Positions 8,883-49,302 are shown, numbered from the stretch's first letter. The stretch is DNA of 64,000 nucleotides from an uncultured Bdellovibrio sp. (GCA_963932905.1 CAWVRN010000004.1:128001-192000); one strand, 5' to 3'. Numbers and translations: made by a program. Notes: generated by a model not told the origin, from the letters alone.

Positions 8883-10319
8883 GTGCGAAAAGACTCTGCT
8901 AAAAACTCTTTATTCTCCTTGTTGTCGCTGCTGTTTCCAGTCGCATTGGGTTTGGTATTTATCCCTCACTTTATCCACGATTTTGGAAAGGAACGCTTTT
9001 CCTTTTTATCTTTGGTTTGGGCGTTGTTTGGCTATTTTAGCTTTCTTGATCTAGGGATCGGACGAACATTGACCAAAATCATCGCCTACGAAAGAGCGAA
9101 AACACAAACCGAACCTTCCTTCTCATTTATCGTATCGGCTCAGTACATAATTTTCTTTTTCAGTTTCTTGTTCAGTATTTTAGTTTTCTTTTCAGCGCCC
9201 GCTATTGTTTACGAATTCTTAAAGATCAGTCCCGAACACCGCATCGAGTTTATTAATTCTATACATATCGTAGCTTTTGGAATTCCACTAGTAACAATGA
9301 CATCGCTGAATCGATCTATTTTAGAAGGTTTCAACGATTTTACATCGGCTAATATTTTGCAAACCTTAGCGGGTATTTTTCTTTTCATCATGCCGTTTGC
9401 GGCATGGAAAATAGAACCTTCGATGACATCTGTCTGCAACGCTATTGTTTTCAGCCGCCTGATTGTCTACAGCTTAAGCCACTATTTTTATAAAAGGAAG
9501 CTCCCCAAACTGGAATGGAATCCCACTTCAACATATGAGCATTTTAAGATGCTTATGTCCCATGGCGTATGGATTACGATTTCCAATGTCCTATCTCCGA
9601 TCATGTCTAGTTTTGACAAAATTCTTCTCGGTAGCTTTACGGCACTTAGTAACGTAGCTTTCTATACAACCCCAATGGAAATGGCTTCTCGTCTATGGGC
9701 GATACCAAGCGCTGTGACTCGTATATTTTTTCCTCAGTTTGCCGCCGCCGAAAAAGACGAACATATTCAGCAACACTTCCGTCACGCCGGGCAAATTATG
9801 GGACTTTTTATATGGCCCGTCTGCTTAATCGCCTTTGTTTTTGCTCGTGAATTAATTTCGTTATGGATCAGCCCCGAATTTTCTGAACAATCCTACCCTT
9901 TAGCGCAATGGATGCTCATTGGCATTTTGTTTAATGCGTTTAACTGGATACCATTCGGATGGCTGCAGGCGACTAAACACGTTCATTGGACCGTGTACAC
10001 CGTAATCTTAGAAGTGCCACTGTTTCTAATTGCATTTTATTTTTTCACGGAACGTTTCGGATTAATAGGATCTGCGGCTGTTTGGACTGGTCGATTGATT
10101 TTTGACTATTTTCTGACGTACATTGTTTGCTCATTCTTCCGCCCAGCATTAATCAAAGAATTTAGATTTTCATTTTCATACTTAGCCACAGGAACTACGG
10201 CAATAGTCACTTTGGCACTAGTTCCTGATTTGAATATTAGAATTTTAACTTCCCTAGTTTATTTAGTTGGCTTTATCCTACTTAACCGCAAGCTGATCAA
10301 AGAAATGCTAATTCGTTAG
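8883..10319 (+). CDS. wzx: Wzx-like flippase (MOP superfamily)
   Basis: ~12-14 TM, FLDLGIG, DKILLG..VAFY. Confidence 0.8.
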   Translation: MRKDSAKNSLFSLLSLLFPVALGLVFIPHFIHDFGKERFSFLSLVWALFGYFSFLDLGIGRTLTKIIAYERAKTQTEPSFSFIVSAQYIIFFFSFLFSILVFFSAPAIVYEFLKISPEHRIEFINSIHIVAFGIPLVTMTSLNRSILEGFNDFTSANILQTLAGIFLFIMPFAAWKIEPSMTSVCNAIVFSRLIVYSLSHYFYKRKLPKLEWNPTSTYEHFKMLMSHGVWITISNVLSPIMSSFDKILLGSFTALSNVAFYTTPMEMASRLWAIPSAVTRIFFPQFAAAEKDEHIQQHFRHAGQIMGLFIWPVCLIAFVFARELISLWISPEFSEQSYPLAQWMLIGILFNAFNWIPFGWLQATKHVHWTVYTVILEVPLFLIAFYFFTERFGLIGSAAVWTGRLIFDYFLTYIVCSFFRPALIKEFRFSFSYLATGTTAIVTLALVPDLNIRILTSLVYLVGFILLNRKLIKEMLIR

Positions 10320-33991: not shown

Positions 33992-35560
33992 ATGATTGAT
34001 CAAGACATGAAAGAACAACTAAAAACCGTGTTTGAAAAACTAGAAGGTAACGTTGAATTGGCTGTTGATTTGAGCCAACACGCAGATCAAGCCGAACTTT
34101 TAGACTTACTAGAAGGTGTCGCTAGCACCAGTGATAAAATCACGGTCACTAAAAATTTGAATCCAGGTATGCAGTCTTTGATACCCCGTTTTAAAGTACG
34201 TCACAATGGCAAGCCCACTGGAATTACATTCTCGGGAATACCAAGTGGTCATGAATTTACTTCTCTTATCCTTGCGGTACTAAATGCGGATCACAAAGGT
34301 AAAATGCCAGACCCTATACTAGCAGACAGAATCAAACGACTAAAAGGTCCGATCAAGCTGCGTACATTTATTTCCTTAACATGTGAAAACTGTCCTGACG
34401 TAGTTCAAGCACTTAACCAAATGGCAATTTTAAATCCCAATATCGAGCACGAAATGATCGATGGCGGTTACGCAGAAGACGATGTTAAACGATTAAACAT
34501 CCAAGGCGTACCTAGTGTTGTTAGTGCTGATGAACTGATTCACTCTGGTCGTATTAGTTTCCTAGATTTGTTAGTGAAGTTAGAAAATGAATTTGGATCT
34601 AATGATGCTCCTGTCGATCAAAAACCTCGCGATCTAGGTGATTTTGACGTGGTCGTTGTTGGTGGTGGCCCAGCCGGCGTATCAGCGGCTATTTATGCCG
34701 TACGTAAAGGGTTAAAAACGGCATTGATCACGGAAAAAATTGGCGGCCAAGTACAAGAAACTCGCGGCATTGAAAATCTAATCTCTGTAACCTACACAGA
34801 AGGTCCACAATTAGCGGGACAGTTAGCACAGCATTTGGCGGCGTATCCAGTACAACTGCTGGAACATCGCCGCGTGAAAACGGTTCATAAAGACGGTTCG
34901 CCAAAACTGGTAGAACTAGAATCGAATGAAACTTTGCGGACCAAAGCATTGATTGTTGCGACGGGAGCCAAATGGCGCGAGCTGGGCGTTCCGGGCGAAA
35001 AGGAATACATTGGCCGCGGCGTTGCTTTTTGCCCGCACTGTGATGGTCCATTCTACAAAGGTAAAAAAGTCGCGGTAGTCGGTGGCGGTAATTCCGGAGT
35101 TGAAGCCGCGATTGATTTAGCAGGTATCGTGCGCGAAGTAGTCTTGATCGAGTACAATGAATCTTTGAAAGCCGATCAGATTTTGGTTAATAAACTAAAA
35201 ACGCTTTCTAACGTAACTATATTAACCAATGCTAAGACAAAACAAATTCTTGGCGATGGACAAAAAGTGAATGCGTTAGAGTTTGAAGATCGTGCTTCGA
35301 AAGAACTTAAAAAAGTGGAACTGGATGGCGTGTTCGTTCAAATTGGATTGCTACCAAATAGTCAATTCTTGAAAGACGTTGTTGAGCTGACTCCGTATGG
35401 CGAGATTGTCGTCGACAACAAGGGCCGCACGTCCACTAAAGGTATTTACGCAGCTGGTGACGTAACAACAACTCCCTATAAACAAATTATCATCGCCATG
35501 GGCGAAGGGGCTAAGGCCGGCCTGGCCGCGTTCGAAGATACGATGTTACACCACGCTTAA
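33992..35560 (+). CDS. ahpF: Alkyl hydroperoxide reductase F
   Basis: CENC N-terminal redox centre, GGGPAG, CPHCDG, GGGNSG. Confidence 0.97.
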
Positions 35561-36630
35561 TTGGAATAAAATTTCTGACACGAATTTAAAGGCTTCCTCG
35601 CTGGGGAAGCCTTTATTAGTGGTAAATAACGGTCAACAGATAAACCCGATTCTTTTAACCAAGATTCAAAAAATACGTCTCGCTGATAAGAACCTAAAAG
35701 TTCAGGAACTTTTTTTTTGAACGGAATAAATCCAGGCTGAACCTTGATCCAAGCAATTCTAGATTCAATCATCTCGGCGTGCAGAATAAATTCCGAGAAA
35801 CTTCGCACCGCACGAACAGCACGTCGTTCAAACGGCACATCGATTTCTGCAAATTGAGGCTTCTCCTGGGTGCCTGTCAAACTCACCAATTTGCGAAACG
35901 TTAGATCTTGATTACGTTTGGGATTGAACTGCGGATTTAAAAAATAAGAATGCAATCGATCTACAATGACGTTTGCCAGCTGACTAAATGACTTTATAGA
36001 TCCTGTTTCTATTAAAATTTGAATATCTTTTATACGAGTCATTAAATCAATTCGGCTGAGCGCTAAAGGCGGTGACGTATTCCAATTGCTTCTGAATACG
36101 CCCGAAGACAACTCAGGATGATTGGCATTGTCGACAAAGTAGTTAAACAAGGATCTTAAATCATAACCAAACGCGGAACGCGCTCCCGTGTTCATGTGGG
36201 TCGCGCGACTAGGACGGCTCTCTAAACCAGCCTCACGAGCCGATCCAAAAATAAGCTCTTCTTTCAAATCCTGATGAGTGTATAGTTCTTGAATGGTTGA
36301 TGGTTTGGTTTGAATTTCTACGCACAAAGGGTCATAGCTGATTTGAAACCACCAGCCATCATGCAGTTGAACAAAAAATTCTTTGCCCCACTTGCCGTTC
36401 ACTTGAGTCACTTTACATCCAAGAGCACGGCATTTTTTAGCAACAGCTTCGGCCATCTTAACAGCCGCAGGAAATTCACTTCCGCGCAACCCACCGACTT
36501 TACTTTTTGAATCCGCAGCATAAATTTGATCGCTAGTGAATTCGATTTCACCGCCATGGGTGATCCCTGATTCGACAAGAATTTGTGCGTTGGAAATAGA
36601 AAGGAAAAATAGCAGCCACAGGATACGCAT
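35557..36630 (-). CDS. Secreted hypothetical protein, possible amidoligase/glutamine-synthetase-like fold
   Basis: Signal peptide from ATG 36630; GGEIEF, DP..VEIQT, THMN, ERR motifs. Confidence 0.45.
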   Translation of the reverse strand: MRILWLLFFLSISNAQILVESGITHGGEIEFTSDQIYAADSKSKVGGLRGSEFPAAVKMAEAVAKKCRALGCKVTQVNGKWGKEFFVQLHDGWWFQISYDPLCVEIQTKPSTIQELYTHQDLKEELIFGSAREAGLESRPSRATHMNTGARSAFGYDLRSLFNYFVDNANHPELSSGVFRSNWNTSPPLALSRIDLMTRIKDIQILIETGSIKSFSQLANVIVDRLHSYFLNPQFNPKRNQDLTFRKLVSLTGTQEKPQFAEIDVPFERRAVRAVRSFSEFILHAEMIESRIAWIKVQPGFIPFKKKVPELLGSYQRDVFFESWLKESGLSVDRYLPLIKASPARKPLNSCQKFYSN

Positions 36631-36704
36631 AAGGCGACGAGTATAGCATGACGAAAATACCATCAAAACTGTAGACTTTTAAACAGATAGCCGTTTTTGG
36701 GAAC

Positions 36705-36769
36705 TGACCTGCTCCCTTTCATGAGCCAGACTATCTTATTTTCTGGCTCGAGTTAAGGGGAGTAGGTCA
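36705..36769. mobile_element. 65-bp IS3-family-like miniature element (two abutted terminal IRs)
   Basis: TGACCTGCTCCCTTTCATGAGCCAGA ... TCTGGCTCGAGTTAAGGGGAGTAGGTCA; TG...CA ends; no transposase. Confidence 0.7.
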
Positions 36770-36779
36770 AGGCCAGATC

Positions 36780-37199
36780 ATAGATTTGAACTGGCAGCAG
36801 GTAAATTTGGAGTCTAAAGAAGTTTCATTTCTAAGAACTTTAAAATCACAATCTCGAAAAATGAGAATATCTGACGAGTTAGTTCTAATATTAGAAAAGA
36901 GAAAAAAGACCAATGGATACGTCTTCATGACTTATTACAAAGAACCATTTACTAAGCCTAAACTAGCTCGATTGGTAAACGAATTCAAAATCAAAACGCG
37001 TTGTGAAATCCAGTGGACTCTCATGGATCTAAGGCATTCCTTTGCTGTTAATTATCTTCGATCTGGAGGAGATATTAGAAAACTTCAGTACTCACTAGGG
37101 CATGAAAATATATACGATACCAAGCGACTTTATTCTGAAGCGATCATCAAAGCTGATTCGAAAACAGTCGAATTAAGCCCATTTGAAATCGGATCTTAA
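36780..37199 (+). pseudogene. Tyrosine recombinase C-terminal fragment, copy 1
   Basis: DLRHSFA...LQYSLGH....T..LY; 5' part replaced by the IS3-like scar. Confidence 0.8.
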
Positions 37200-37311
37200 A
37201 TCGTACAATTTGCAGTGCAGGGATCACGGGCGGCCCAGGATCCGGGCCCCCATTTTTCGGGTTTAGTCGAGAATTTTGGTAATCTTTTGGCCAAAGTTTG
37301 GCCACGAATTT
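37200..37311 (+). repeat. Conserved ~110-bp post-integrase repeat, copy 1 (att-like)
   Basis: Aligns to 40671-40782; GGATCACGGGCGGCCCAG.ATCCGGGCCCCC and TGGCCAAA-G-TTTGGCCA. Confidence 0.8.
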
Positions 37312-37347
37312 AAACAAAGTGTTTGTTTGGAAAATGCGACGCTTCGC

Positions 37348-37575
37348 TCAGCGCACTATTGGCCCTGAGGGAGAGCTTCCATTTCGCAAAAAAAAGTAAA
37401 TCGAAATTGCCCCAAGAAGAACACTTGAAATTCCAAAAGCAATCCATTCCCTATTCCAAATGGACCAAAGTAAAATAATACTTACAATAAATGAAAGGAA
37501 TGAAAGAATATTTTCAATCCTTTTACGCTTTGGATTCTTGCTTTCTTCAATCGGTTTCTCCGGAACAATCTTCAT
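37348..37575 (-). CDS. Putative immunity protein (2 TM), cassette 8
   Basis: Starts 9 bp after the RHS-tip stop; two hydrophobic helices. Confidence 0.65.
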   Translation of the reverse strand: MKIVPEKPIEESKNPKRKRIENILSFLSFIVSIILLWSIWNREWIAFGISSVLLGAISIYFFLRNGSSPSGPIVR

Positions 37576-37584
37576 ATCACCACC

Positions 37585-37970
37585 TTATGGAATAGGAGCC
37601 ATGTACAAACGTTTACATACGTAACCCATAGCTCTATAAGCAGCTACCTCAGCTGCCTTAGATACCGCAATATTAATTACAGCAATCTCCGCTTCTGTTT
37701 TTGCATCTTTTCCACACATGCCAGGTTCAAGCCCACGCGACTCCCGTTGACTTCGATCAGACTCCGCATATGCTTCTGCAGCAGCACCTCTACCTACACC
37801 TGGTGTAGCTATAGAACATAAAAAACCTGATACAGGACCGGTGCCTTCAGCATCTATAAAGTTTATCGGATCCTGCAACACATATCCATACAAATTCGTA
37901 TCCCCACCCTCAAACAAAATCGGATCTTTACTCGTCCATCTCCCCGTCTCAGGATCATAATGTCTGTATG
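37585..37970 (-). pseudogene. Orphan RHS core end + C-terminal tip, cassette 8
   Basis: [39 protein letters not shown] + unique tip; RHS homology stops near 37970. Confidence 0.85.
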
Positions 37971-38344
37971 AAGTATTGAAGCAAAATGCTTCACTTGAAT
38001 GTTTCATAGTTATTTCAATATCTTCTCACTTAGATTCTGTTTTTTACAACCGCCAAATTTTTTGCATTTTGGGAATATTTTTTTAGTTTTGGCCAAAATC
38101 TGGCCAACGAAATTCGAATCCCGGTGCGCAATACTCTCAAATCTGCAGTTTTACCTATATCAATTTAGTGATCTTGGTATTCTATGGTGATTGATACTTA
38201 AAATAATTTCTCTGTATAAAGTGGGGGCTATGTCTGACTATTAACTTTCCAAAGTGCCATTTTTAGGCTATATTGGTGCGCTATAAGCCAATATATTGCT
38301 TTACGTTGGGTATAGCAGTTGCAATTTAAGTTTTTGGAGATTTT

Positions 38345-38554
38345 ATGACTTCACAACATGAAGAAAAAAATAAGCGTCTTGAAATCCTTAAGCAAGAAGA
38401 GAAAATTATTTCTGAGCTGAATGACACTTCAGAACTAAGTGAACGACTTAATAAGATTAAAGAAAGTCATAACCGCAAATATTCAATTAATGACGAAGTT
38501 CAAGAAGAACCTGTTAGAAAAATTGCTATACCAGAAAACGATAATTCAATTTAA
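38345..38554 (+). CDS. Small charged protein, possible partner/antitoxin of the PIN protein
   Basis: GGAG RBS; ends 8 bp before the PIN gene. Confidence 0.55.
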   Translation: MTSQHEEKNKRLEILKQEEKIISELNDTSELSERLNKIKESHNRKYSINDEVQEEPVRKIAIPENDNSI

Positions 38555-38562
38555 GATTAACC

Positions 38563-39288
38563 ATGATATACAAAGCTCAAGATGTACTACTCGATAGTGC
38601 TAAACGCATTCTCGTAGACTCAAATATCATCGTTGCCTATTTCGATGAAAAGCATAAGTTTCATAAAGAAGTTTTTGATAGACTAAATCCAGTATATTTA
38701 AACGGAGCAAGTTTTTTCTATGTTCAACCATGCCTTTTAGAATTTAAGGAGTATTGGCGTAGAAAAAAACTAACAGAATGTATTGAAGAAATGATCGGAA
38801 AAGAGTTCTATTTTTTCAGAGAGTTTCGAAAGTTATATAATAAATTTCGTACCGACAATCAAAATCAAGGTTATGAGTACTTAAGTGATCGACAAATCAA
38901 AAATCTTCGTGGCACTCTTGAAAACATACACAACAATAAAGGATTAAACTTCTGGTTCGATTTAAGCAATGTTGCATTAACAGGAACTTTATCCAACTTA
39001 GAAAATCGATTATCTAAATCGAAATTTATCTACGCCAAATTTGATGACAATAATCTTTTTCCAATATCAAACAAACCAAACTGGCCTAAGTGGATTGACG
39101 CTGATTTGGCCCAGGAAAAATTTTGTTTAGCAGCTAACGATGCGGCGATCTTGAATATGACAAACAATGCATTTAACATTGACTCATTTATTTCAAATGA
39201 CGGAGACATGCTGTTTGCGGTTAGCAACGGTGCGCTCAAACATCAAATTAATACATATACTTTTTTAGATAACTCAAACTTTATCTGA
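38563..39288 (+). CDS. PIN-domain protein
   Basis: ILVDSNIIVA..D..HKFH, E, NDAAI, ISNDGD acidic quartet. Confidence 0.75.
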   Translation: MIYKAQDVLLDSAKRILVDSNIIVAYFDEKHKFHKEVFDRLNPVYLNGASFFYVQPCLLEFKEYWRRKKLTECIEEMIGKEFYFFREFRKLYNKFRTDNQNQGYEYLSDRQIKNLRGTLENIHNNKGLNFWFDLSNVALTGTLSNLENRLSKSKFIYAKFDDNNLFPISNKPNWPKWIDADLAQEKFCLAANDAAILNMTNNAFNIDSFISNDGDMLFAVSNGALKHQINTYTFLDNSNFI

Positions 39289-39315
39289 ATTCTAAATAGG
39301 TATTACTATATAATT

Positions 39316-39480
39316 TTACTTACCTCTATTGCAAAGCTCCTGAGCATTTGGCTCATCTTTCCGGCACATGTTATCAACAGAATCCCAGCAACCCCCTCCG
39401 TCTAAGCAAGCGTCTTTTTTCTCACAGCTAAGAGATAAAAAAATTATTGATAGCAACAAAATTTTAACTAAATTTTTGGA
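39316..39480 (-). CDS. Small Cys-rich lipoprotein, probable orphan immunity gene (start uncertain)
   Basis: Manual translation SKNLVKILLLSIIFLSLS-CEKKDACLDGGGCWDSVDNMCRKDEPNAQELCNRGK*; only TTG starts available. Confidence 0.5.
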   Translation of the reverse strand, partial: SKNLVKILLLSIIFLSLSCEKKDACLDGGGCWDSVDNMCRKDEPNAQELCNRGK

Positions 39481-39518
39481 ATGTTAAATTTCTTTCCGTT
39501 TGAATGTTTGTTAGGGAA

Positions 39519-40055
39519 TTATGAGTATGTTTTTATCCAATCATCAATTTGGTTTTGCAAATCCTTGTCTTGCCACTCAAAATAAAAATTGCCGTCAAGG
39601 TCTTTCTTGTATTGCAAATTAGTCTTTGGCGGCACATTGCTAGTAGTGCCTTCTTTCAACTCAAGGCCAACTTTTTTAGAAAACAAATCTGCATATGCTA
39701 AATGATCATTTGGGTAAAACCTTGTACTCGCCATTTGTTGATTGAAAAATGTGATTGTCAGAGTTCCCTTAATTCCTAAATGCTCATAGTTCTTAATTTT
39801 CCAACTCAAGATGCTAAATGCTGGCCTAGTATCTCCGTTTTCTAGTTTACTATCTTCGATGACTTCAACACTATAGTTTGCATTTTTTAGAATGTCTTGC
39901 GCCTGAGCTGGGTTCATCAAACTAGAGAATGGATCAACTAATTCGGTCTTGATCGTAACGTTGTTTTCTGTGTAGCTAGGTCTATAAAAATAAAATAGTG
40001 ACGCCACAACAAATATAAGAAATCCCACAACAATTATTATTTTTTTATTTTTCAA
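39519..40055 (-). CDS. Putative immunity protein (N-terminal anchor), cassette 7
   Basis: TTG 40055 preceded by GAGGAG overlapping the stop of an upstream remnant ORF. Confidence 0.6.
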   Translation of the reverse strand: MKNKKIIIVVGFLIFVVASLFYFYRPSYTENNVTIKTELVDPFSSLMNPAQAQDILKNANYSVEVIEDSKLENGDTRPAFSILSWKIKNYEHLGIKGTLTITFFNQQMASTRFYPNDHLAYADLFSKKVGLELKEGTTSNVPPKTNLQYKKDLDGNFYFEWQDKDLQNQIDDWIKTYS

Positions 40056-40065
40056 AGCGATCTCC

Positions 40066-40187
40066 TCAGTACCCATTTGAGCCCGTTACCGGCGTGGTAG
40101 TCAATATGCCATTAGTAAGTGAACTCATGCACTTCTGCGAGCAAGTTCCTGCCCCTGCAGAGTTACCTCCGTGGTAGCTTCCGGTAG
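40066..40187 (-). pseudogene. Probable toxin-tip 3' remnant, cassette 7
   Basis: Open frame TGSYHGGNSAGAGTCSQKCMSSLTNGILTTTPVTGSNGY* abutting integrase fragment 2; RHS core missing. Confidence 0.4.
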
Positions 40188-40670
40188 CATTATTATTTCT
40201 ATCCAATTCTAAAAATATTTTCAGAATCTGGAGCAAAGCTCTGCGAAATCATCGATTTAAATTGGCAACAAGTAGATCTGGAAAATAAAGAAATAACATT
40301 TCCTAGAACCATCAAATCGCAATCTCGGAAAATAAAGATTTCAGACGAACTAACTTCAATTCTAGAAAAGAAGAAAGAAGTAACTGGATATGTTTTTAAA
40401 ACTTATTATAACGAGGCGTTCAGCAAACCTAAACTGGCCCGACTGGTTAACGAATTTAAAATCAAAACAAAATGTGAAATTAAATGGACGTTGATGGATC
40501 TAAGACATTCTTTTGCTGTTAACTTTCTTCGCTCGGGTGGAGACATTAGAAAGCTTCAGTACTTAATGGGGCACGACAACATTTACGATACAAGGCGCCT
40601 ATACGCAGGTGCTGTCGCAAAAACAGACTCGCAAGTGGACACTTTAAATCCGTTTGAAATCGGGTCCTGA
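40188..40670 (+). pseudogene. Tyrosine recombinase catalytic-domain fragment, copy 2
   Basis: Not in ORF track. Manual: YPILKIFSESGAKLCEIIDLNWQQVD...MDLRHSFA...LQYLMGHDNIYDTRRLY...NPFEIGS*; close paralog of copy 1; no upstream start. Confidence 0.85.
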
Positions 40671-40782
40671 ATCGTACAATTCGCAGCGCCAGGATCACGG
40701 GCGGCCCAGTATCCGGGCCCCCATTTTTTGGGTTTAATAAAGAATTTTGGTAAACTTTTGGCCAAAGTTTGGCCTCGGATTT
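40671..40782 (+). repeat. Conserved ~110-bp post-integrase repeat, copy 2 (att-like)
   Basis: Aligns to 37200-37311. Confidence 0.8.
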
Positions 40783-40841
40783 TGAAGTAATAAAGCTATT
40801 TTTAAAAATAGCTTTATTACGTGCGCTCACTATGGCTCAGT

Positions 40842-41147
40842 CTAGTGGATCACAGAGTTTGGCGGTTGCTTGATATCCGGAATTTTATATATTCCAAAAC
40901 CAATTAACAATACTCCAACAAAACAAAGTACATAGCCCAATATTTTTTCATAATGAATTAGTTCATCGGCACCACCACCAATTTTTTGAACTATATCCAG
41001 ACTTGCAAGTATTGGAAAAAATAGAAGTATGCCTCCGCAAAGACCAACAACAATTCCTAAAAATATTAATTTTAGTCCACCCTGACTTTTATTTTTAAAG
41101 TTTTCTATATTATCAATTTGCGGTTTTGGAGGCACAATCTGATTCAT
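40842..41147 (-). CDS. Putative immunity protein (2 TM), cassette 6
   Basis: ATG 41147 after AGGAG overlapping the upstream remnant stop. Confidence 0.65.
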   Translation of the reverse strand: MNQIVPPKPQIDNIENFKNKSQGGLKLIFLGIVVGLCGGILLFFPILASLDIVQKIGGGADELIHYEKILGYVLCFVGVLLIGFGIYKIPDIKQPPNSVIH

Positions 41148-41155
41148 AAATTCTC

Positions 41156-41400
41156 CTATGGTGTGAAAGGGCTTAACATCAAAGCAAGACATGCCTTATA
41201 ACCAAATTTATCAATGGCATATCTAGTTGCTCCAGTTGCGGCAGACTACGCCGCTAGCTTACCAACCTTTCTCATAAATCCTGCTTTAACCGTATCATCG
41301 ATATGATCGATGATACGAATCAACACTTACACGAAATCTATCGAGGGTTGCCTATCGACTAAGAGTGCCGGTCTCGTGCTCCATAGCTCCTAACGGCCGT
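41156..41400 (-). pseudogene. Degenerate RHS cassette 6
   Basis: Leader VRSYGARD then foreign sequence; tip ...KLAA*SAATGATRYAIDKFGYKACLALMLSPFTP* with internal stop, resembling the cassette-8 tip end. Confidence 0.6.
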
Positions 41401-41481
41401 TTCTGGCCGTCAAAAATTAGGGACTACAAAGCTTTAGTTAACAACTATCACAACTGGTTTTATGCTTGCTTCCTTCTTAAA

Positions 41482-41607
41482 CTACTTTTCTTCTGCAAGA
41501 ATTTGCTGATCAGAATTTTTATAAAAACAAGATTTAACCACTACTGTAATGGCAATAGTGGTAACAAAAATAAGTGCATATATGATAATTTTTTTCTTAC
41601 TACTCAA
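41482..41607 (-). CDS. 41-aa single-TM putative immunity protein, cassette 5
   Basis: Manual: MSSKKKIIIYALIFVTTIAITVVVKSCFYKNSDQQILAEEK*, TTG after GGGAG. Confidence 0.5.
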   Translation of the reverse strand: MSSKKKIIIYALIFVTTIAITVVVKSCFYKNSDQQILAEEK

Positions 41608-41659
41608 GCACACTCCCTTTCCAAAAATATTCTTACAACCTATATTATAACTAATTTAT

Positions 41660-42040
41660 CTATGCGGGACATTTATTAATTGGCTTTGGACGTCCAGGCC
41701 GAGGAAATCGATCTGGTTGTCTTGTTTTAGGAAGCCTCTCAATTTGTGTTGGGGGACCATTGATAAATTCATCCCATCTAAGCCTCCACTTTAAGGTGTA
41801 AGTCATTGGATCTTTAAAATAATCAACTAATTCCTCACCAATTAGAAGCCCGGTCCCAACAACTATAGGAACTATAATAAATGGATTCAGCCCACTCGGA
41901 TCTGTAAAGTTCACAGGATCGTTCCAAGTATAACCGTAGAGATTAGTATCAGCACCTTCAAACAAAATGGGATCCTAGCTCGTCCATCTCCCCGTCTCAG
42001 GATCATAATTCCTGGCACCAAAGCCTCTAACGGCCGTATC
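41660..42040 (-). pseudogene. Orphan RHS core end + tip, cassette 5 (in-frame TAG at 41975-41977)
   Basis: [36 protein letters not shown]...DPSG + tip. Confidence 0.85.
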
Positions 42041-42089
42041 ACAACACAATATTTTCAAACTCAAAAAAGAAAACGGCCGATCTCGGCCG
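42031..42089. repeat. Inter-cassette spacer D
   Basis: Junction CGGCCG, 37-bp gap, CGGCCG-N4-CGGCCG hairpin. Confidence 0.8.
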
Positions 42090-42135
42090 CTAAAAATAAT
42101 TTTGATACTAATTGCTTTAACTATTTTAAAAGAAA

Positions 42136-42558
42136 TTATTGGAGTCTATTTAAAACAAAAACAACTACCAAAGAAACAACAAAAACAAATCCAATAGCTA
42201 TAGCAACCAAAACAAAGGGATGTACTCCTAATCGATCTATCTTATATCCCTGATTGTTATAATTTCTAATTAAACCTACTAAACGCTCCCGGGCACTTTT
42301 TCCTCCAGCATTCCAGATATCATCACTTTGAGCCTGCACTATAAATTTTGTTTTATTTGGATATTTTACCCATGAGACCCGTACCTTAACACGCTGAAAA
42401 CCATACTTTACTACGCCCTCAAAAAAGTGTTCCTGCTCATTACTAATTTTTCCTAATTTCTGAAGGGCGGCCTTAGCTACTTGCAAACTTGTTGCAAAGT
42501 CTTGTTGAGTCTCCACTTCTCCATTTCCTAAATCTACAAAATCCATATTCATCCCCAT
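42136..42558 (-). CDS. Putative immunity protein (C-terminal TM), cassette 4
   Basis: Directly after the tip stop. Confidence 0.65.
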   Translation of the reverse strand: MGMNMDFVDLGNGEVETQQDFATSLQVAKAALQKLGKISNEQEHFFEGVVKYGFQRVKVRVSWVKYPNKTKFIVQAQSDDIWNAGGKSARERLVGLIRNYNNQGYKIDRLGVHPFVLVAIAIGFVFVVSLVVVFVLNRLQ

Positions 42559-42563
42559 TCAAA

Positions 42564-42944
42564 TTATTTGTCTAATATTTGATCGATGTTGCTTTTACCA
42601 TCATCAATGATAATAGGTAAAAGTACCTGACCCGCACCTATAGCAGCACCAAGCGCGGCACCCGCTATCATCCCTGGGCCAGAGCCAGCCGGCAAACACA
42701 TACCAACCGTCGCTCCAGTAACTCCGCCAATTACAGCCCCTTTAAACGCTCCTTTTCCTGCATCTAATATATCTCTAGAGGTTATTTTCCTCAACCCATC
42801 TGGATCAATAAAATTCACCGGGTCCTGTAGCACATACCCATACAAATTCGTATCCCCACCAGCAAACCCAATCGGATCCTTCGAAGTCCACCGTCCAACC
42901 TCAGGATCATAATCCCTGGCTCCGAAGCCCCTAACGGCCGTATC
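42564..42944 (-). pseudogene. Orphan RHS core end + glycine-zipper tip, cassette 4
   Basis: [24 protein letters not shown]...DPDG then GA..GA.IGG..GA..G zipper. Confidence 0.85.
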
Positions 42945-42994
42945 TCCTTAAGGAAAATCGAACTGGAAAATTAAAACGGCCGCTTTCGCGGCCG
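42935..42994. repeat. Inter-cassette spacer C
   Basis: Junction CGGCCG, 36-bp gap, CGGCCGC-TTTC-GCGGCCG hairpin with A/T flanks. Confidence 0.8.
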
Positions 42995-43055
42995 TTTTAA
43001 TTATTTATGCATCAACTATCTTAACTGACTCCGATAGACTAGAATTTAAATTGCA

Positions 43056-43346
43056 TTAGAATATTTCCTTTTCTAAGAATAAAAATAAGAGACTAACAGC
43101 AGTCGCACTAATCATTATTAGATAGCCTAAATAATACAATTTTTTCATTTCTGGAGTCATTTCTCTTGCTCCAAAACTTACCCAATTGCCTTTTTTGAGA
43201 ATCGAAATTTTAGCCCTGAAAAACAGTACAAAACCAACAATGAAAATCAGTGCTAACTGCACTCTAAAATTTAGTGAAAGCAAGGCGCCACAAATCAAAG
43301 GTCCATAAAAAATTGCTGCGTTAAATTTAGCTGACTGTGGGCCCAT
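43056..43346 (-). CDS. Putative immunity protein (3 TM), cassette 3
   Basis: AGGAG RBS directly after the tip stop. Confidence 0.7.
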   Translation of the reverse strand: MGPQSAKFNAAIFYGPLICGALLSLNFRVQLALIFIVGFVLFFRAKISILKKGNWVSFGAREMTPEMKKLYYLGYLIMISATAVSLLFLFLEKEIF

Positions 43347-43357
43347 ATTTTCTCCTT

Positions 43358-43780
43358 TTATATTCCTGGAACTGGGGGAACTGTATTACCCGGATTAACC
43401 ATGCCACATCGGTATCCAGCACCTGCGACGCCTTTCCAACCACCGTAGCTACTGATAAGCGAATAATTTTTATCGTACTCATCATATAAGGGATCATTTA
43501 ATTTATCTGCCTCGCATTTTCCCTTAGTAAGCTCATTGTACTTTATTTTAGTGTATAAGACAGCATTTCTGGCCGTCAATGCCGCAACCAAGGCATAATT
43601 ATTAATTGACCCAATAACCATACAAAGCTTTCCATCTGGGTCGATATTATTCACCGGATCCTGCAAAACATATCCATACAAATTCGTATCTCCACCCTCA
43701 AACAGTATGGGATCTTTCGAAGTCCACCGCCCCGTCTCAGGATCATAAGCCCTGACTCCAAAGCCACTAACGGCCGTATC
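43358..43780 (-). pseudogene. Orphan RHS core end + tip, cassette 3
   Basis: [24 protein letters not shown]...DPDG + tip. Confidence 0.85.
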
Positions 43781-43830
43781 TCATTCAGGAAAATCGAACC
43801 GCAAAATTAAAACGGCCGCGTTTGCGGCCG
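43771..43830. repeat. Inter-cassette spacer B
   Basis: Junction CGGCCG, 36-bp gap, CGGCCGC-GTTT-GCGGCCG hairpin. Confidence 0.8.
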
Positions 43831-43872
43831 GAGAACTACTTAGGTATCAACTATCTTGATTGGCTCCGTGGC

Positions 43873-44049
43873 CTAGTTTTGTTTCTCAATAGCTGGTGCT
43901 ATTTTAATCTTATCTCTTAGCTCTCTTTCTGTTTTATCTGTCCTATTAAAATAAAAAGCTTTAAGTAATGCGAAAAAGAAAACCAGCAGGCAGAATATCC
44001 ATATCCACAATCGTTCATTTTTTTTAAAACTATTTAAAAGCCTTCTCAA
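43873..44049 (-). CDS. 58-aa single-TM putative immunity protein, cassette 2
   Basis: Manual: [61 protein letters not shown] overlaps the tip TGA; GGAG RBS. Confidence 0.6.
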
Positions 44050-44444
44050 GAATTCTCTCCCCCATGATAGCTGTTAGGATACCCTTTTGGCGGTCTAAGT
44101 CTATGCCATTTAGGCATCGGAGTAGATTTTATTTTTTTAGGAACAGGACAGGTTCCAAAGTTTCTCGAATCGTTCTCTATTTCGTTAAACTCACCTTCGC
44201 CAAAATTATCTCCCAAAATTGTTCCAATGTAGTCTCCTAAAAAATATATTCCAGGTAAGATAATAGGTGCCAATATCGGCCCAACGGCTGCTTTCCCCTC
44301 AGGATCAATTAAATTCACCGGATCCTGCAACACATATCCATACAAATTAGTATCACCGCCATTAAATAAAATAGGATCTTTCGAAGTCCATCGACCAGTC
44401 TCAGGATCATAATCACGGCCGCCGAAGCCCCTAAGGGCCGTATC
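44046..44444 (-). pseudogene. Orphan RHS core end + tip, cassette 2
   Basis: [24 protein letters not shown]...DPEG + tip. Confidence 0.85.
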
Positions 44445-44497
44445 CCGATACAACAATTCCAAAACTCACAAAATAAAAACGGCCGTTTTCGGCCGTT
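44435..44497. repeat. Inter-cassette spacer A
   Basis: Junction GGGCCG, 39-bp gap, AACGGCCG-TTTT-CGGCCGTT hairpin. Confidence 0.8.
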
Positions 44498-44560
44498 AAA
44501 AATAATATTCGAAATCAACAATTACTTTTATATTCTTGGGCCACGAAAACTCACTAAAAA

Positions 44561-45034
44561 CTAATTCTTAAAATTTATATTTTCAAAAACTGAAGTTAGC
44601 TGATGCTTTTCCAGTTCGCCCTTGTCTTTTTCATCGGCAACAAATTGCATTTTCTTCGCTTCTTCGAATAATGGTTGAATCTTCTCCAACTGATTTGGCG
44701 AATTGTTTCGCTGATTCTCTCTGGCGACCTCTATACCTTCGTAAAACAGCCACACTTCAATAGTAGGAATTTCTTTTTGAGGTACAGTTTTGTAAATTTG
44801 CTTCGCCTTTTCTATATCCTGCTTGACGCAAAGGCCTCTGGCGTAGAAAGACGCAAACAAATATGCTGCCTCATTGGAAAGATAGACAGCACGTTTAGTA
44901 TTTTCGAAACTTTCGCAATACTCACCGTCTTCAAACTCATGCCTGCCTTTTTCTTCAAAATGAGAATACGTAAGTCTATAAACTACGAATAAGCTAAAAA
45001 GCGAAATTACAGTGCCTATTATAATTTTTATCAT
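44561..45034 (-). CDS. Putative immunity protein with Sel1-like repeat, cassette 1
   Basis: N-terminal TM; A.Y..A.FY..G.CVKQD.EKA; overlaps the RHS stop. Confidence 0.7.
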   Translation of the reverse strand: MIKIIIGTVISLFSLFVVYRLTYSHFEEKGRHEFEDGEYCESFENTKRAVYLSNEAAYLFASFYARGLCVKQDIEKAKQIYKTVPQKEIPTIEVWLFYEGIEVARENQRNNSPNQLEKIQPLFEEAKKMQFVADEKDKGELEKHQLTSVFENINFKN

Positions 45035-46683
45035 TATAGTCCTACCTCAATTGTATTATTTCCGTCCTCTGCACCCAACAGATTATTTATATTACTTAAA
45101 TCTGTTTCTGATGAGTTTGGATCTCCTGTTATGCAACCATTGGAGCCACCTTTCCTCAAGTGTAATAAAAAGTCTCCACCGTTTTGTCCTAGTTTAAATC
45201 CAATTCTAGAAAATAATCCAGGATCTAAAAACCAATCTCCAGTCTTTAAGCCTGGTAGCTTCCTAATATCATAAGTGCCTATTGGGATTGGACCTAAAGG
45301 AGAACCAGTTGCAGATGGTTTATTTTTAAAGGTTCCGGCGCCACTAAACATCTGCGACATGTAAGAAGTAGCACCATCATTACTAGTACAATTTAGTTTA
45401 CCACTAGTAATTGAGTAGCTACATTTCGCCAACCCCATCGGATCAATATAACTCATCGGGTCCCCGCCGACATACGCATACAAATTCGTATCCCCACCCT
45501 CAAACAAAATCGGATCTTTACTCGTCCATCTCCCCGTCTCAGGATCATAATCCCTCGCCCCAAACCGAACCAATTTCGTGCTCCAATCGGCTAGCCCCCC
45601 GGCAAAGCCAATTGCCAGCTCGCCGCTTCGATTGTCTTGTAAAACTTTTCCAAATTCATCGTATTCAATTCTTTGAATTATGGATCCGTCACTGCCCTTT
45701 ACTACCATCACCGGGCTGCCCAATAAATCTGTAACTATTTTGTAATTTACGCCGGCTTCTATATAGTAATCAGGCGCATGGGATTTCGTTGCGTAAACGT
45801 ATCTTCGTTTTAAACTTCCGTCGGCATTTAGTTCGGCAACTAAACGACTCTGTTCCCATAAATAGCGTCTAACAACCACCCCGTTTATCTTGCGACTGAC
45901 TCTTCTGTTTAGTCCATCAATATCGTAGTTGATTAACGTTCCATTTTCTAACTTGACTTGAGTTAAATTCCCGAGCGTATCATAGACGTAACTGGCCGTT
46001 TGATTGAGCACCGTATTTGTTTTGCTTTGTAGCTCTCCGTCCGCGTTATAGGCAAAGGTGCTAGATCCAAAGCTAGACAGACGATCTTGCGTGTCATATG
46101 CCGCTGCCGTCGTGCTGGGTGGGCTTGCGATCTGTGCAGAGGTTCTATTCCCGTTATCATCATAGGTATATTTTCTGATCCACACCGATGATAAATATTG
46201 GATTTCCTTTAGGCGGCCGCGATTATCATAAATATATTTATAGGCTTTAGTTGGCCAACCGCTGACTGTGTAGGATCGAGTCAAAATACGTCCCAGATTA
46301 TCGCGCGTCAGGGTTTCGCTATACAGATTGGCGCTTCCGCTTACAACTGTCCGCCCAGTGATTTCTGCAAAATTATTTGTCGTAATGTTTTCATCAATCA
46401 AACCAAGCGTGGTCTTGTTCAATATTCCATTCGGAGCAGATGAATAAAATAAGTTTAAACTTCCGGCTTGGGTCAGTTGTTCATCATCGTTATAGACATA
46501 AGGCAGAGTTTCAATTGCCCCCGCGCCCACCTTTAATTCAAAGCTAGATAGTTTTCCTTCTGATGCAAAATACTTTTTACTATAAGCCGTGACACTGCCG
46601 TGCTCAAACGACTCTTTACTGACATAGTCTCCTAAATACTCATACCTTGTTACAATACCACTTGGTCCGGTGACACTAGATAT
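45034..46683 (-). pseudogene. 5'-truncated RHS/YD-repeat protein with Tlde1 (DUF2778)-like tip
   Basis: YD repeats, [14 protein letters not shown]...DPMG, tip FSG..GPIP.G.Y...LH...SNGCIT; frame stays RHS-like to ~46683 with no proper start. Confidence 0.85.
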
Positions 46684-46979
46684 TCAAGGAGCCAGTTCTT
46701 ATTCAATTCAATACCTGTTTTTTTGAAGAAAATCAGAGGCGATGATAAACTCTATTTACGAAAACTTCGATCATTGCTTTATTTGTAGAAACTTAAACTC
46801 GATCTGACACTTCCCACAAGTGGTTTCGATTTTATCAGACAACCGGAAAGAATGGCCAATATTTACAACATATTCGACTGTCAATTTCTGGAGGTTCTTT
46901 CCAGTAAACTTGGGTCATAAAGTCTTTAAATTCATAATCGAGAAGTCTAACATTAGAAGATTTATGGAGACGCCAATCA

Positions 46980-48170
46980 TCAGAAATTGTTGGTGGCGCC
47001 AGCATCCTTTCTCTCTCCTGGTTTGCCCGGGCTCTCATCCTGAAACAGAGTTGTATATCGTTTACGAATCCCCAAGTTGTATCCAAACCTGAGTCCAACA
47101 CGCAGATTGTTATACGCTGAAAGGTCCTTTACTTGGTCCCGAATTGTCTGAAAAGCGAGACCGTATAACGGCTTCAAATCCTCTCTCGTCTGATTAAGGG
47201 AGCCTCCCACAAAGGTCTGTACAATAATTGATCTAGTAGTGTTTGAGTTATTAGAAAACGTGTTGTCCGTCACGCTCGTTAGGTTAAATTTTCCAGTGGA
47301 TTCCATCTTGTTCCGAATATCTAACAAAGTTGCGATATCTGGATTCCTTTTGACCGCTGTAAAGCTCCATAGTCCTACTAGTATAATAACTGCGGAAACA
47401 GCTCCAGCAATGGCTATTGCCTTTTTTGTTTTCGCTGGATCGTCTAAAGAGGCCAAGGCCGTTGCATTAAATCGATCATGGTACACAACAATCGAGTTAG
47501 CTATGAGATCGTGGAGTCCGCGCTTCAGCGGGTGTAGCGGCAAAAACAAATAGCAGCCAACAACTCCAATGAACCACATCGTACCAATAATGGAATCGGC
47601 CGTCGTAGAAAGCTCTGAGCCCACTAACAAATTGACGACGCCAGAAAAGACGCCGATGTATCCAACGAAGGCGATGATCAGATATCTCAAGAAAGATTTA
47701 ACCAGAGAAAGGGGTTCGCCATTCATATTCAAAACCTGAATACCCAAAATTCGCTTACCGAGGCTTTGGCCGTTACCGAAGCTACTTTGCGAAGGTACAA
47801 AATATGCGATTGATACTAGTAGCCCAAGCCACACGCCATGCTCGCCCAGCTTCACAAACAAGTCCTCCAGTCCAAAACTGAGCACCATCGCGAAAGTCCA
47901 GAGAATTGCTAAATCGATGACATCGGCAACGACTCTTATCCAAAACCCAACAACCAGTTTTGGCACCTGGCTTTCCACAGGCGGAGTTATTTGAACTTCG
48001 TTCCACAACCCTTTTTCCTTCCGTGTCTTAATTTCAACTAGGCACGCTTCATAGTTTGCTGGGAACTTATCTTTATTTATTCTACCCAAAGAGGCAATAA
48101 GTTCGCCTTGAGGTAACGTCGAGAAGTCTATAGTGCTACTAGTTTTTTCGTCCGTCAATTTCTCTCCCAT
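46980..48170 (-). CDS. RDD-family membrane protein
   Basis: GFWIRVVADVID, GQSLGKRILGIQV, RGLHDLIANS.VV. Confidence 0.85.
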   Translation of the reverse strand: MGEKLTDEKTSSTIDFSTLPQGELIASLGRINKDKFPANYEACLVEIKTRKEKGLWNEVQITPPVESQVPKLVVGFWIRVVADVIDLAILWTFAMVLSFGLEDLFVKLGEHGVWLGLLVSIAYFVPSQSSFGNGQSLGKRILGIQVLNMNGEPLSLVKSFLRYLIIAFVGYIGVFSGVVNLLVGSELSTTADSIIGTMWFIGVVGCYLFLPLHPLKRGLHDLIANSIVVYHDRFNATALASLDDPAKTKKAIAIAGAVSAVIILVGLWSFTAVKRNPDIATLLDIRNKMESTGKFNLTSVTDNTFSNNSNTTRSIIVQTFVGGSLNQTREDLKPLYGLAFQTIRDQVKDLSAYNNLRVGLRFGYNLGIRKRYTTLFQDESPGKPGERKDAGATNNF

Positions 48171-48328
48171 ATCAATGCCAGTTTGGCGACAGCATTAACA
48201 TAAATTACAAAAACGCTCAACGTCGAATTGAGTTCGAGCGTATCGACTGACGTAATATTAATGATCAGTTCCTAAGCGAAAGAACTACAAACTCACTTTT
48301 ACTGGAATATGTGCCTTATTCTTTCTAT

Positions 48329-48355
48329 AAGTGTCCAACTTAAAGGATATCAACA
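48329..48355. mobile_element. Possible solitary IS3-family end
   Basis: Reverse complement TGTTGATATCCTTTAAGTTGGACACTT fits the TG...GGACA pattern of IS3-family IRs. Confidence 0.3.
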
Positions 48356-48480
48356 ATTCGGCCTTTATAGCACCCGTCCTCGAGTGGATTCCATGTTATA
48401 CAGGTGCCTTGGCTCAAGACGAGGGGTGCAACCTTACCCATATCGGGGACAGTATCCACCCCCCGGTGCTTTATAAAAAA

Positions 48481-49302
48481 TTAATCTCTGGCGATCAAAG
48501 CGTTTGCTAGTAATTTAGCGGCCTTCTTTGCGGTTTCTACGTTCGGGTGGATACCGTCACCAATATGGGTGAAGTTTTTCCATACGTCCACCTGGATAGC
48601 GTTAGGAAGTTCACTTTGGATTCTGTTTTTATATCGATTTCTTAATTTGTTGTAAGACGTCTGATCGATAACCCATGGAAGGCCAAATGTGTTTTTGAAA
48701 TGATTTAAATCTAGGTCATTGTATTTTGGGTAATTATCAAAAACAGGCGTCAGCCCCATAGAAATCACCGATTGTCCCACCGCGATCATGCGATCAATCG
48801 ACTCGTCGATTTGTTGTAGCGTGCAGGGAGTCGTTAGACTCTGCGGCTGATCAAAGGCACCGGCATGGAGACAATCATTTGGAATGGTAATTACAACATA
48901 CTTTGCACCGAACGAAGAAAAGGTAGGCGGAGCTAGAACACGTGGCAACGCTTTGTTAAACATCGTCAAATAGCTGTCCCAACCCGGTGACTGGCAAGTC
49001 GTTGCATTGCAGTCTTGACGAGCAAACGATGTTGCACCGGCTTGACCTTCATTCACTACAAATCCCGGAAGAGATTTTTCTCGAACAAGTGCATCCCCTA
49101 AGCTCAGGTAGGCGCTACCATTTACAGCTGTGCCTCCCAATGGAGCCGATGCGCCCGTATACGGAGTCTTTGCGCTCGCATAGGAAGCCCCAATCACTAT
49201 CAAAGGTTTTTGTGAATCCACCACGGCATCAGCAGTTACGGGTAGTAGTCCGAGCGTTAGCCCCAGTAAAGCGTATTTATTGAAAATTCTATTTTTTAAC
49301 AT
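48481..49302 (-). CDS. Secreted SGNH/GDSL hydrolase
   Basis: Signal peptide, IGASYA, GQAGATS, ND, DGIHP. Confidence 0.8.
   Translation of the reverse strand: MLKNRIFNKYALLGLTLGLLPVTADAVVDSQKPLIVIGASYASAKTPYTGASAPLGGTAVNGSAYLSLGDALVREKSLPGFVVNEGQAGATSFARQDCNATTCQSPGWDSYLTMFNKALPRVLAPPTFSSFGAKYVVITIPNDCLHAGAFDQPQSLTTPCTLQQIDESIDRMIAVGQSVISMGLTPVFDNYPKYNDLDLNHFKNTFGLPWVIDQTSYNKLRNRYKNRIQSELPNAIQVDVWKNFTHIGDGIHPNVETAKKAAKLLANALIARD

Follow-up and report, generated by a model that had tools for sequence, protein, structure and literature searches.

A conserved spacer in a Bdellovibrio Rhs array is probably a fixed boundary module of orphan tip cassettes spread by homologous recombination

A 64,000-nucleotide stretch of DNA from an uncultured Bdellovibrio sp. 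(GCA_963932905.1), hereafter the window, corresponds to contig C4:128001-192000 of a 4.55-Mb genome with 40.7% GC and carries an array of orphan cassettes with dissociated Rhs C-terminal tips, all of its features lying on the minus strand. Rhs arrays in which C-terminal displacement has given rise to such tips are a known class, to which the locus belongs. Cassettes 2 to 5 are each preceded by a conserved spacer made of a hairpin, a gap, and a junction, a 5′ boundary that we call class A; classes B and C denote other cassette 5′ ends. We consider it probable that this spacer is a fixed boundary module of the orphan cassettes and that it is spread by homologous recombination. In what follows, G002 and G009 are the genomes of two other species in the genus, L-numbers are loci or contigs, and X1 to X4 are DNA runs.

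All four class A units share one anatomy. Read on the minus strand, each consists of a CGGCCG-N4-CGGCCG hairpin, a T-run, a gap, the junction GATACGGCC(G/C)TTAGNGGCTTYGG, approximately 140 nt of core end running to DPxG, an unrelated tip, and a small open reading frame (ORF). The original prediction, made from this DNA alone, had placed a CGGCCG hairpin with a T tract, a gap, and a junction before cassettes 2 to 5, and this was borne out in every unit; its gap lengths of 39, 36, 36, and 37 also hold when counted from the last stem G to the CGGCC of the junction (40, 37, 37, and 38 when counted to GGCC). The tips are mutually unrelated (identity, 0.28). Behind each lies a co-oriented small ORF that no family names and that is presumably an immunity gene.

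The leader of the truncated core fragments is ordinary Rhs coding sequence. It had been proposed that this leader, DTAVRGFG, is not simply copied core; that proposal was not supported, as the leader is in register with the DT(G/K)LV(R/K)FG of intact Rhs genes in the genus and the family. The comparators were Rhs genes of the same genus plus two from other genera of the family, one of which reads GATACGGGGCTTGTGAGGTTCGGTGCCAGGGATTATGAT. The distance from GATACG to TATGAT is equal in the orphan leader GATACGGCCGTTAGGGGCTTCGGAGCCAGGGATTATGAT and in the intact genes, and the two have GATACGG, GTTAGG/GTGAGG, TTCGG, and GCCAGGGAT in common. Given this equal length and common sequence, DTAVRGFG corresponds position for position to DT(G/K)LV(R/K)FG. 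Moreover, when the orphans were translated from the junction, starting at the T of DTAV, cassettes 2, 3, and 4 matched TIGR03696 (the RHS-associated core domain, a model of 76 positions) with 54.7 to 61.3 bits (cutoff, 32.5), from profile positions 28 to 30 through positions 75 to 76; cassette 6, of class B, matched positions 31 to 75 with 54.8 bits. We also considered the gap as decayed core and rejected this: the 34 nt 5′ of the DT codon in 8 orphans aligned locally with 11 intact genes no better than shuffles did (P values of 0.05 to 0.90 for the mean score and 0.17 to 1.0 for the best score). Because no core similarity was shown upstream of GATACG, the truncation point lies at, or a few bases before, the DT codons.

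The module is rare in its own genome and confined to close relatives. Allowing up to 4 substitutions, the junction 20-mer ACGGCCGTTAGGGGCTTCGG has seven matches in the genome, five of which are the array copies; the other two, on contigs C17 and C42, have neither a hairpin nor a YDP context. The pattern CGGCCG-N2-9-CGGCCG occurs six times, four of them in the array. The component words are not overrepresented genome-wide (observed versus maximal-order Markov expectation, 661 versus 687 for CGGCCG, 56 versus 49 for ACGGCCGT, and 77 versus 63 for CGGCCGTT); therefore, the spacer represents neither a terminator type in general use nor an uptake sequence or REP-like element. Among the 10 species representatives of the genus, which belongs to the Bdellovibrionaceae, a DNA search with the 215-nt module found matches in three genomes, that of the window included. 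At the family level, 23 of 182 genomes gave a match, and outside the genus the matches covered the coding FGARDYDP part only (query positions 83/85 to 111) or generic GC hairpins; seven that were inspected comprised two intact Rhs genes and five unrelated hairpins or coding sequences. With one genome per species, the exact junction pattern was found at four loci, two true, both in the Bdellovibrionaceae, and two by chance in unrelated contexts (Pedobacter and a Caulobacteraceae metagenome-assembled genome). A metagenome scan returned five contigs. One matched the window exactly, two were near-copies of the loci in G002 and G009, and two were new. Altogether, nhmmer identified 12 distinct class A spacers among the loci compared (4 in the window, 1 in G002, 3 in G009, 3 in L067, and 1 further in L068). 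The hairpin is present in all 12 and none lies inside an intact gene; L058 holds one degenerate copy besides. In the related contigs, the class A orphan usually stands directly behind the first small ORF 3′ of a full-length rhs gene.

One exchange between relatives was resolved at the base level. A contig of G002 (L057, identical with L062) and the metagenome contig L068 have in common a 1,072-nt block that is 99.72% identical, with three mismatches between positions 1482 and 2540. The left end of the block lies exactly at TATGATCC of one core end, and its right end lies 40 to 53 nt past the junction CGGCCG, inside the next core end; it contains the core end, a tip, two small ORFs, the hairpin, the gap, and the class A junction. 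To the left, L057 continues into a full-length rhs core, so that the block is the tip of the main gene, and L068 has a noncoding class C junction, in which ..AAACGGCCGCTCCAGTTCTAGTCAT directly precedes TATGAT, so that the block is an orphan. To the right, the two contigs have different core ends and tips. The block is a single cassette unit with a core-end repeat on both sides, which is what homologous recombination via a circular or linear intermediate would be expected to transfer.

Sequence similarity within the array is mosaic. The spacer of cassette 2 is 0.87 identical to the G002 spacer, versus 0.58 to the cassette 3 spacer and 0.58 to 0.68 across the spacers of its own array; its core end is 0.80 identical to those of cassettes 3 and 4 and 0.67 identical to that of G002. 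The switch between these two affinities takes place gradually over approximately 100 nt of core end, with no step at GTTAG. We further used DNA runs X1 to X4, which hold near-identical sequence, and considered uncovered parts of the window only where a contig runs on. Contigs of X2 and X4 diverge from the window (at 42914 and 42916, respectively) and continue into in-frame, intact-type core (DTGLVRFGVR and DTKLVRFGA, on the reverse complement). In X2 there is no cover over 43106 to 44206 and 44574 to 45307, and 41980 to 42855 is present without a difference. These data are consistent with a strain that never received the first tip or cassettes 2 and 3 and in which cassette 4 still tips an intact gene.

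Two further observations were made in the runs. In one X2 contig (42044/44461), the cassette 2 hairpin and T-run are connected, across 12 other letters, with the cassette 5 junction, giving a hybrid class A spacer of normal length; since X2 also holds the window's own cassette 5 spacer, two strains or arrangements coexist. The X1 joints 42890 to 45541 (shorter side, 27 nt) and 45476 to 37887 (75 letters fit either side) were rejected as rearrangements, being cross-alignments of core-end repeats.

We propose the following scheme. The terminator (a CGGCCG/CGGCCG stem, a 4-nt loop, and a long T-run) would end transcription of the preceding tip and small-ORF pair. Between it and the core edge would lie a linker of approximately 25 nt that is essentially unconstrained, and the third part would be the 5′ edge of a truncated core, comprising the last ~49 codons of the RHS-associated core domain from the DT of the final repeat. 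The truncation point would have arisen once, in an ancestor within the same Bdellovibrionaceae genus. The unit of core end, tip, immunity gene, terminator, linker, and junction would then move as a block by RecA-type homologous recombination, with crossovers falling in the ~140-nt core-end repeats downstream of the junction; the junction would stay constant because it rides inside the unit. When a new unit recombines into an expressed rhs gene, the old tip would be displaced downstream, and a class A junction would be placed before it. Silent Rhs tip arrays are a known reservoir for interbacterial weapons and immunity, and the locus is a clean example in a Bdellovibrio-like lineage.

Orphan Rhs tip arrays, C-terminal displacement, and a scheme with a circular intermediate were described by Jackson et al. 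in 2009 (PMC2935791), arrays of this kind are known in Snodgrassella alvi (PMC5727410), and orphan cdiA-CT/rhs-CT modules have been reported (PMC3150448). As in those arrays, the window holds co-oriented truncated core fragments that end in DPxG, each followed by a nonhomologous tip and a small ORF; tips are found elsewhere on a full-length core, exchange is bounded by conserved core, and the orphans mostly have no start codons. The 1.07-kb block and the fixed junction that travels with it form the pattern that the circular-intermediate displacement model predicts, and the value of the locus is mainly illustrative in this respect. However, the class A core fragment has one fixed length, whereas Jackson et al. 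expected lengths that depend on the breakpoint (PMC2935791). Unlike in known orphan arrays, the fragment is also preceded by a conserved terminator and linker common to species, and the array is headed by an rhs gene that is 5′-truncated in the assembly. Among the papers listed by a full-text literature search, judged by titles and abstracts, no description of Bdellovibrio Rhs tip arrays was found. The pilE/pilS and mafB systems of Neisseria (discussed in PMC2935791) likewise have silent promoterless cassettes with short conserved flanks. Unlike in Neisseria, programmed high-frequency switching is not evidenced here, and the genome has no expression locus of the clade. The flanks of the neisserial silent cassettes are homology arms for RecA-dependent transfer into the expression site.

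Each hairpin resembles an intrinsic terminator for the small ORF that precedes it. A consensus scan called three of the four terminator-like (9 sites in the region versus 7.0 ± 2.9 in shuffles), and the fourth, absent from the calls, is a perfect 15-bp palindrome. All four begin 43 to 64 nt past the stop codon of a co-oriented small ORF and, like intrinsic terminators, they have a GC-rich stem of 6 to 8 bp, a 4-nt loop, and a T-run of 8 to 10. Unlike in ordinary intrinsic terminators, nearly all copies have one and the same stem sequence, which recurs a third time in the junction. No σ70-like promoter was found in the spacers on the minus strand (33 sites in the region versus 29.8 ± 5.5 in shuffles), and the class A spacers showed no conserved start codon in the gap. 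Among 8 copies, the mean pairwise identity is 0.79 for the hairpin and T-run, 0.55 for the gap, 0.78 for the junction, 0.78, 0.81, and 0.50 for core-end codon positions 1, 2, and 3, respectively, 0.41 for the 40 nt upstream of the hairpin, and 0.28 for the tip. With 0.55 in the gap against 0.50 at third codon positions, the gap drifts at about the third-position rate, and the hairpin is constrained.

The differing loops over stems that stay paired had been read as a sign of structural selection, and the pairing itself is as described: the terminator helix is paired in 94.8% of cells (12 copies). Yet covariation is absent, with changes on both sides in 0 of 8 pairs, and shuffles equal the observed pairing, because the six G-C pairs are essentially invariant. 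The stems stay paired by invariance of their sequence and not by compensatory change, which is not needed since CGGCCG is its own reverse complement. Thus, the proposed structural selection rests on conservation, which fits a terminator as well as any other role.

Several points weigh against our account. The exchange resolved at the base level is a single event, the evidence from X1 to X4 consists of single low-depth metagenome contigs, and termination at the hairpins is predicted rather than observed. The head rhs gene is headless in the assembly and has no close full-length partner in the genome, so that activation by recombination is impossible within the genome as assembled; moreover, its core end is only ~76 to 78% identical to those of the orphans, which is low for efficient RecA recombination. 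The remaining points concern the decamer CGGCCGTTAG in the junction. No longer run of columns with at least 90% conservation lies 3′ of the hairpin (11 copies), and all three third-codon positions of the decamer are invariant, versus 9 of 38 in the core end (11 copies; rough P, ~0.01). In cassettes 3 and 4 the leader is untranslatable, with in-frame stops just upstream, yet the decamer is conserved, which neutral hitchhiking does not obviously predict. Furthermore, the 9-mer ACGGCCGTT of the hairpin 3′ arm recurs in the junction, and pairing of the junction with the 5′ arm is possible in 89.2% of cells (12 copies), without covariation. The strict conservation of the decamer is unusual; it may stem from conversion by the hairpin arm, from a role in cis during recombination, or from chance in a small sample.

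These same observations lend themselves to an alternative that we regard as unlikely, namely, that the class A spacer is a selected boundary element of the cassettes and not a passive scar. Here, the terminator would insulate each silent cassette, and the strictly conserved ACGGCCGTTAG, which repeats the hairpin 3′ arm and can pair with the 5′ arm, might fold into a cruciform or be bound by a protein; the resulting structure would focus strand exchange, template switching, or nicking by the core-end homology arm. If so, swaps of toxin tips would be more frequent and always in frame, and the element would correspond, as a bacterial analogue, to the conserved 3′ recombination repeats known from pilin silent loci; the Xer-like recombinase that is intact at the end of a related array might act on it. 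A functional basis for the conservation of CGGCCGTTAG would point to a cis element steering the recombination of toxin cassettes.

It appears quite improbable that a tyrosine recombinase recognizes the spacer, through GTTAG and the CGGCCG palindromes, as a dedicated (attC-like or rAID-like) site for the site-specific insertion or excision of cassettes, with the hairpin serving as a terminator besides. Integron attC sites are imperfect inverted repeats, R″(RYYYAAC)-L″...L′-R′(GTTRRRY), that form a bulged hairpin of 57 to 141 nt. The class A spacers resemble them in having a repeated hairpin element at cassette boundaries, the GTT heptamer GTTAGRG, and promoterless cassettes in one orientation. 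Each spacer contains three (A)CGGCCG(T) palindromes, and the nucleotide-level conservation of CGGCCGTTAG, third codon positions included, also speaks for such a site. So does a fused remnant at 41378 to 41410, in which the hairpin 3′ arm ACGGCCGTT is joined directly to the junction tail TTAGGAGCTATGG: the gap is absent, Rhs similarity stops approximately 12 nt later, and the whole is the product expected from a deletion between the two ACGGCCGTT direct repeats of the hairpin arm and the junction. However, the spacers have no R″/L″/L′/R′ architecture or extrahelical bases, GTTAGRG has no inverse-core partner (RYYYAAC) in the 12-copy alignment, and in place of a bulged 57- to 141-nt fold there is only a perfect stem of 6 to 8 bp with a 4-nt loop, a stem-loop of 16 to 20 nt. 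Nothing in Rfam scored above its gathering threshold; the five matches at E values of ≤1 were mostly terminator-like ends of small RNA models.

Recombinase genes do lie close to the array. Two tyrosine recombinase fragments are found 0.7 to 4.6 kb past its end, and an intact 343-amino-acid (aa) homologue, 72 to 78% identical over the shared part, ends an Rhs array in G009 (contig C130), beside a second integrase. An integrase-like gene is likewise found near Rhs loci of S. alvi (PMC5727410). The recombinases of the window, however, are 5′-truncated, downstream of the array, and convergent with it, and no intI was present: against the integron-integrase model TIGR02249 (cutoff, 265), the window fragment scored 35.5 bits and the intact homologues 53.5 and 76 bits. 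By tblastn, none of the four class A contigs of G002 and G009 (L054 to L057, which are short) carries an integrase, and the cassettes linked to an integrase, found in the window and L058, belong to class B instead of class A. Finally, both ends of the resolved exchange, one event, lie in core-end repeats and not at GTTAG or between its G and TT, and the similarity of spacer and core end shifts gradually and not at one point. The rAID-1 arrays of Bacteroidales (10.1101/471110) offer a precedent, with integron-like intergenic repeats beside an XerD-like recombinase, and share with the locus small presumed immunity genes with toxin remnants, repetitive intergenic sequences, and Xer-like recombinases nearby. 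Their defining feature is that the 5′ end holds an intact XerD-like recombinase in the same direction as at least two downstream genes; unlike them, the window has only 3′ fragments, on the opposite strand, downstream and convergent, and its repeats include Rhs core coding sequence. Thus, GTTAGRG did not hold up as an integron-like crossover, with no inverse core, no IntI, and an exchange that ends elsewhere, and this reading should be dropped. Of the combined terminator and recombination site that had been inferred, the terminator stands, by prediction, and the integron-like recombination site does not.

It is very unlikely that the spacers have no wider meaning and record just one terminator and core-end unit that was recently duplicated in tandem within this genome. 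The stems are indeed invariant without compensatory change, the rate of change in the gap is close to that of third codon positions, and cassettes 3 and 4 have spacers that are 85% identical, with 35 further nt in common upstream of the hairpin. Nonetheless, two other species of the genus have the module, as do independent metagenome contigs, the cassette 2 spacer is nearer to that of G002 than to any in its own array, and the tips between the repeats are unrelated. The original prediction had set against itself the case in which the leader is ordinary coding sequence of intact Rhs genes and the spacers simply descend from one duplicated terminator. This is essentially what we found: the leader is ordinary core, and the spacers derive from one ancestral terminator and junction, with the difference that they have probably spread by recombination and not by local duplication.

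A regulatory RNA switch, in which the hairpin 5′ arm pairs either with the 3′ arm, forming the terminator, or with the junction CGGCCGUUAG and so sets transcription or translation into the next cassette, is hardly credible: it would account for the nucleotide-level conservation of the junction, and the alternative helix is possible in the 89.2% of cells given above and is used in the minimum-energy folds of the cassette 3 and cassette 5 91-mers, but the junction, being downstream of the terminator and U-run, is made after the termination decision, the helix shows no covariation beyond shuffles (204 to 332 of 500 reach the observed value), any two CGGCCG palindromes pair by construction, the fold z-score of cassette 2 (-0.41) lacks significance and that of cassette 3 (-1.50) is weak, and the gap has no conserved start codon or promoter-like site.

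The features of the array and its surroundings are listed in Table 1. Hairpin 3 is shaped like a bidirectional terminator, and the 91-mer that contains it has a predicted minimum free energy (MFE) of -35.7 kcal/mol (z, -4.0); for the fused remnant the corresponding values are -17.8 kcal/mol and -4.1. The frame of cassette 2 is kept open by a TTG at 44462, inside the gap. In cassette 5, the first 21 residues match TIGR03696 positions 28 to 47 with 19.3 bits.

Table 1. Features of the Rhs tip array and neighboring recombinase fragments (window coordinates)
Feature	Position	Strand	Remarks
5′-truncated rhs gene, 498-aa ORF	45034..46530	-	Heads array; last ~370-380 core residues + tip; without N-terminal delivery part
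Small ORF, 157 aa, presumed immunity gene 1	44561..45034	-	Role from position only; no family matched
Hairpin 1, AACGGCCG-AAAA-CGGCCGTT + T-run	44478..44497	-	8 pairs, 6 GC, loop 4, tail TTTATTTTGT; kept in centroid fold
Class A junction, cassette 2, GGATACGGCCCTTAGGGGCTTCGGCGG, truncated-core start	44419..44445	-	Repeat family D3
Cassette 2, core end + variable tip	44046..44444	-	TIGR03696 positions 28-75, 54.7 bits
Small ORF, 58 aa, after tip 2, presumed immunity gene	43873..44049	-	Subthreshold Pfam match only
Hairpin 2, CGGCCGC-AAAC-GCGGCCG + T-run	43813..43830	-	7 GC pairs, loop 4
Class A junction, cassette 3	43755..43781	-	In-frame TGA immediately 5′ of GAT
Cassette 3, core end + variable tip	43358..43780	-	TIGR03696 positions 29-75, 57.6 bits
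Small ORF, 96 aa, presumed immunity gene 3	43056..43346	-	No family matched
Hairpin 3, perfect 15+15-nt palindrome AATTAAAACGGCCGC-GAAA-GCGGCCGTTTTAATT around CGGCCGC-GAAA-GCGGCCG	42969..43002	-	Inverted repeat, 100% complementary
Class A junction, cassette 4	42919..42945	-	In-frame TAA two codons 5′ of GAT
Cassette 4, core end + variable tip	42564..42944	-	TIGR03696 positions 30-76, 61.3 bits
Small ORF, 140 aa, presumed immunity gene 4	42136..42558	-	No family matched
Hairpin 4, AGCGGCCG-AGAT-CGGCCGTT + T-run	42072..42091	-	8 pairs, 6 GC
Class A junction, cassette 5	42015..42041	-	Repeat family D3
Cassette 5, core end + tip	41660..42040	-	Core broken by in-frame TAG 41977-41975
Fused remnant (fifth junction copy 41378-41404)	41378..41410	-	Hairpin ACGGCC-AGAAAC-GGCCGT
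Sixth cassette, class B 5′ end, own ATG + leader	37585..38007	-	TIGR03696 positions 31-75, 54.8 bits; without hairpin or class A junction
Xer-like recombinase fragment 1, 137 aa	36786-37199 (region 36759-37330)	+	C-terminal part of 343-aa recombinase
Xer-like recombinase fragment 2, ~158 aa	~40194-40667 (region 40194-40800)	+	C-terminal part of 343-aa recombinase

The head ORF matches the teneurin/YD shell PF25023 (E value, 9e-29), RHS_repeat (E value, 3.7e-9), and, over residues 290 to 367, TIGR03696 (74.6 bits). Its tip has weak similarity to Tlde1_dom (28.3 bits, below the cutoff of 30.1). The gene aligns only to residues ~754 to 1133 of the Rhs proteins of relatives, which exceed 1,200 aa, with similarity beginning at 46569, and an RDD-family gene (46980 to 48170) lies upstream. 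In runs X1, X2, and X4, contigs depart from the window at 46685 with one common continuation, and others join at 46781 to 46783; other strains seem to hold more sequence around 46685 to 46783, and the window would represent either a real deletion or an assembly collapse. The genome has six further Rhs genes of other clades (contigs C3, C44, C1, C11, C33, and C52), which are 22 to 28% identical to the main genes of relatives; none has a class A junction.

Cassettes with other 5′ ends were also observed. The class B cassettes (37585 to 38007 in the window and approximately 1061 to 1588 in L058, both on the minus strand) have their own ATG and a short leader, reading MKHSSEAFCFNTSYRHYDP.. in the window and MIAEKSIEAFRFDFSHRHYDP.. 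in G009, and their upstream noncoding sequence is conserved between species. Class B may represent a stand-alone short Rhs-tip gene. The class C junction is found in L059 (~6290 to 6390), L060 (minus strand), and L068 (minus strand, ~1380 to 1480 of the reverse complement) and reads ..CTCTCGAAATTT.CA..(100 nt)..A(A/G)CGGCCGC...GTTCTAGTCAT, followed by TATGAT(CC). CGGCCG thus recurs near the boundary, and core similarity begins exactly at the Y of YDP.

The two recombinase fragments of the window are 74% identical and cut at the same residue, and each is followed by a conserved flank of 113 to 136 nt with a GGCCCAGnATCCGGGCC hairpin. No tRNA or att site was found near them within 34000 to 49000. 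The intact homologue (L059:8177-9208) lies next to a second integrase (9223 to 10242) and a Mom-family gene, and L058 has a 69-aa fragment. Between an ORF for a 116-aa membrane-like protein (40842 to 41192) and the second integrase fragment of the window, a perfect 17+17-nt palindrome (GTAATAAAGCTATTTTT/AAAAATAGCTTTATTAC) at 40787 to 40820 is probably a bidirectional terminator.

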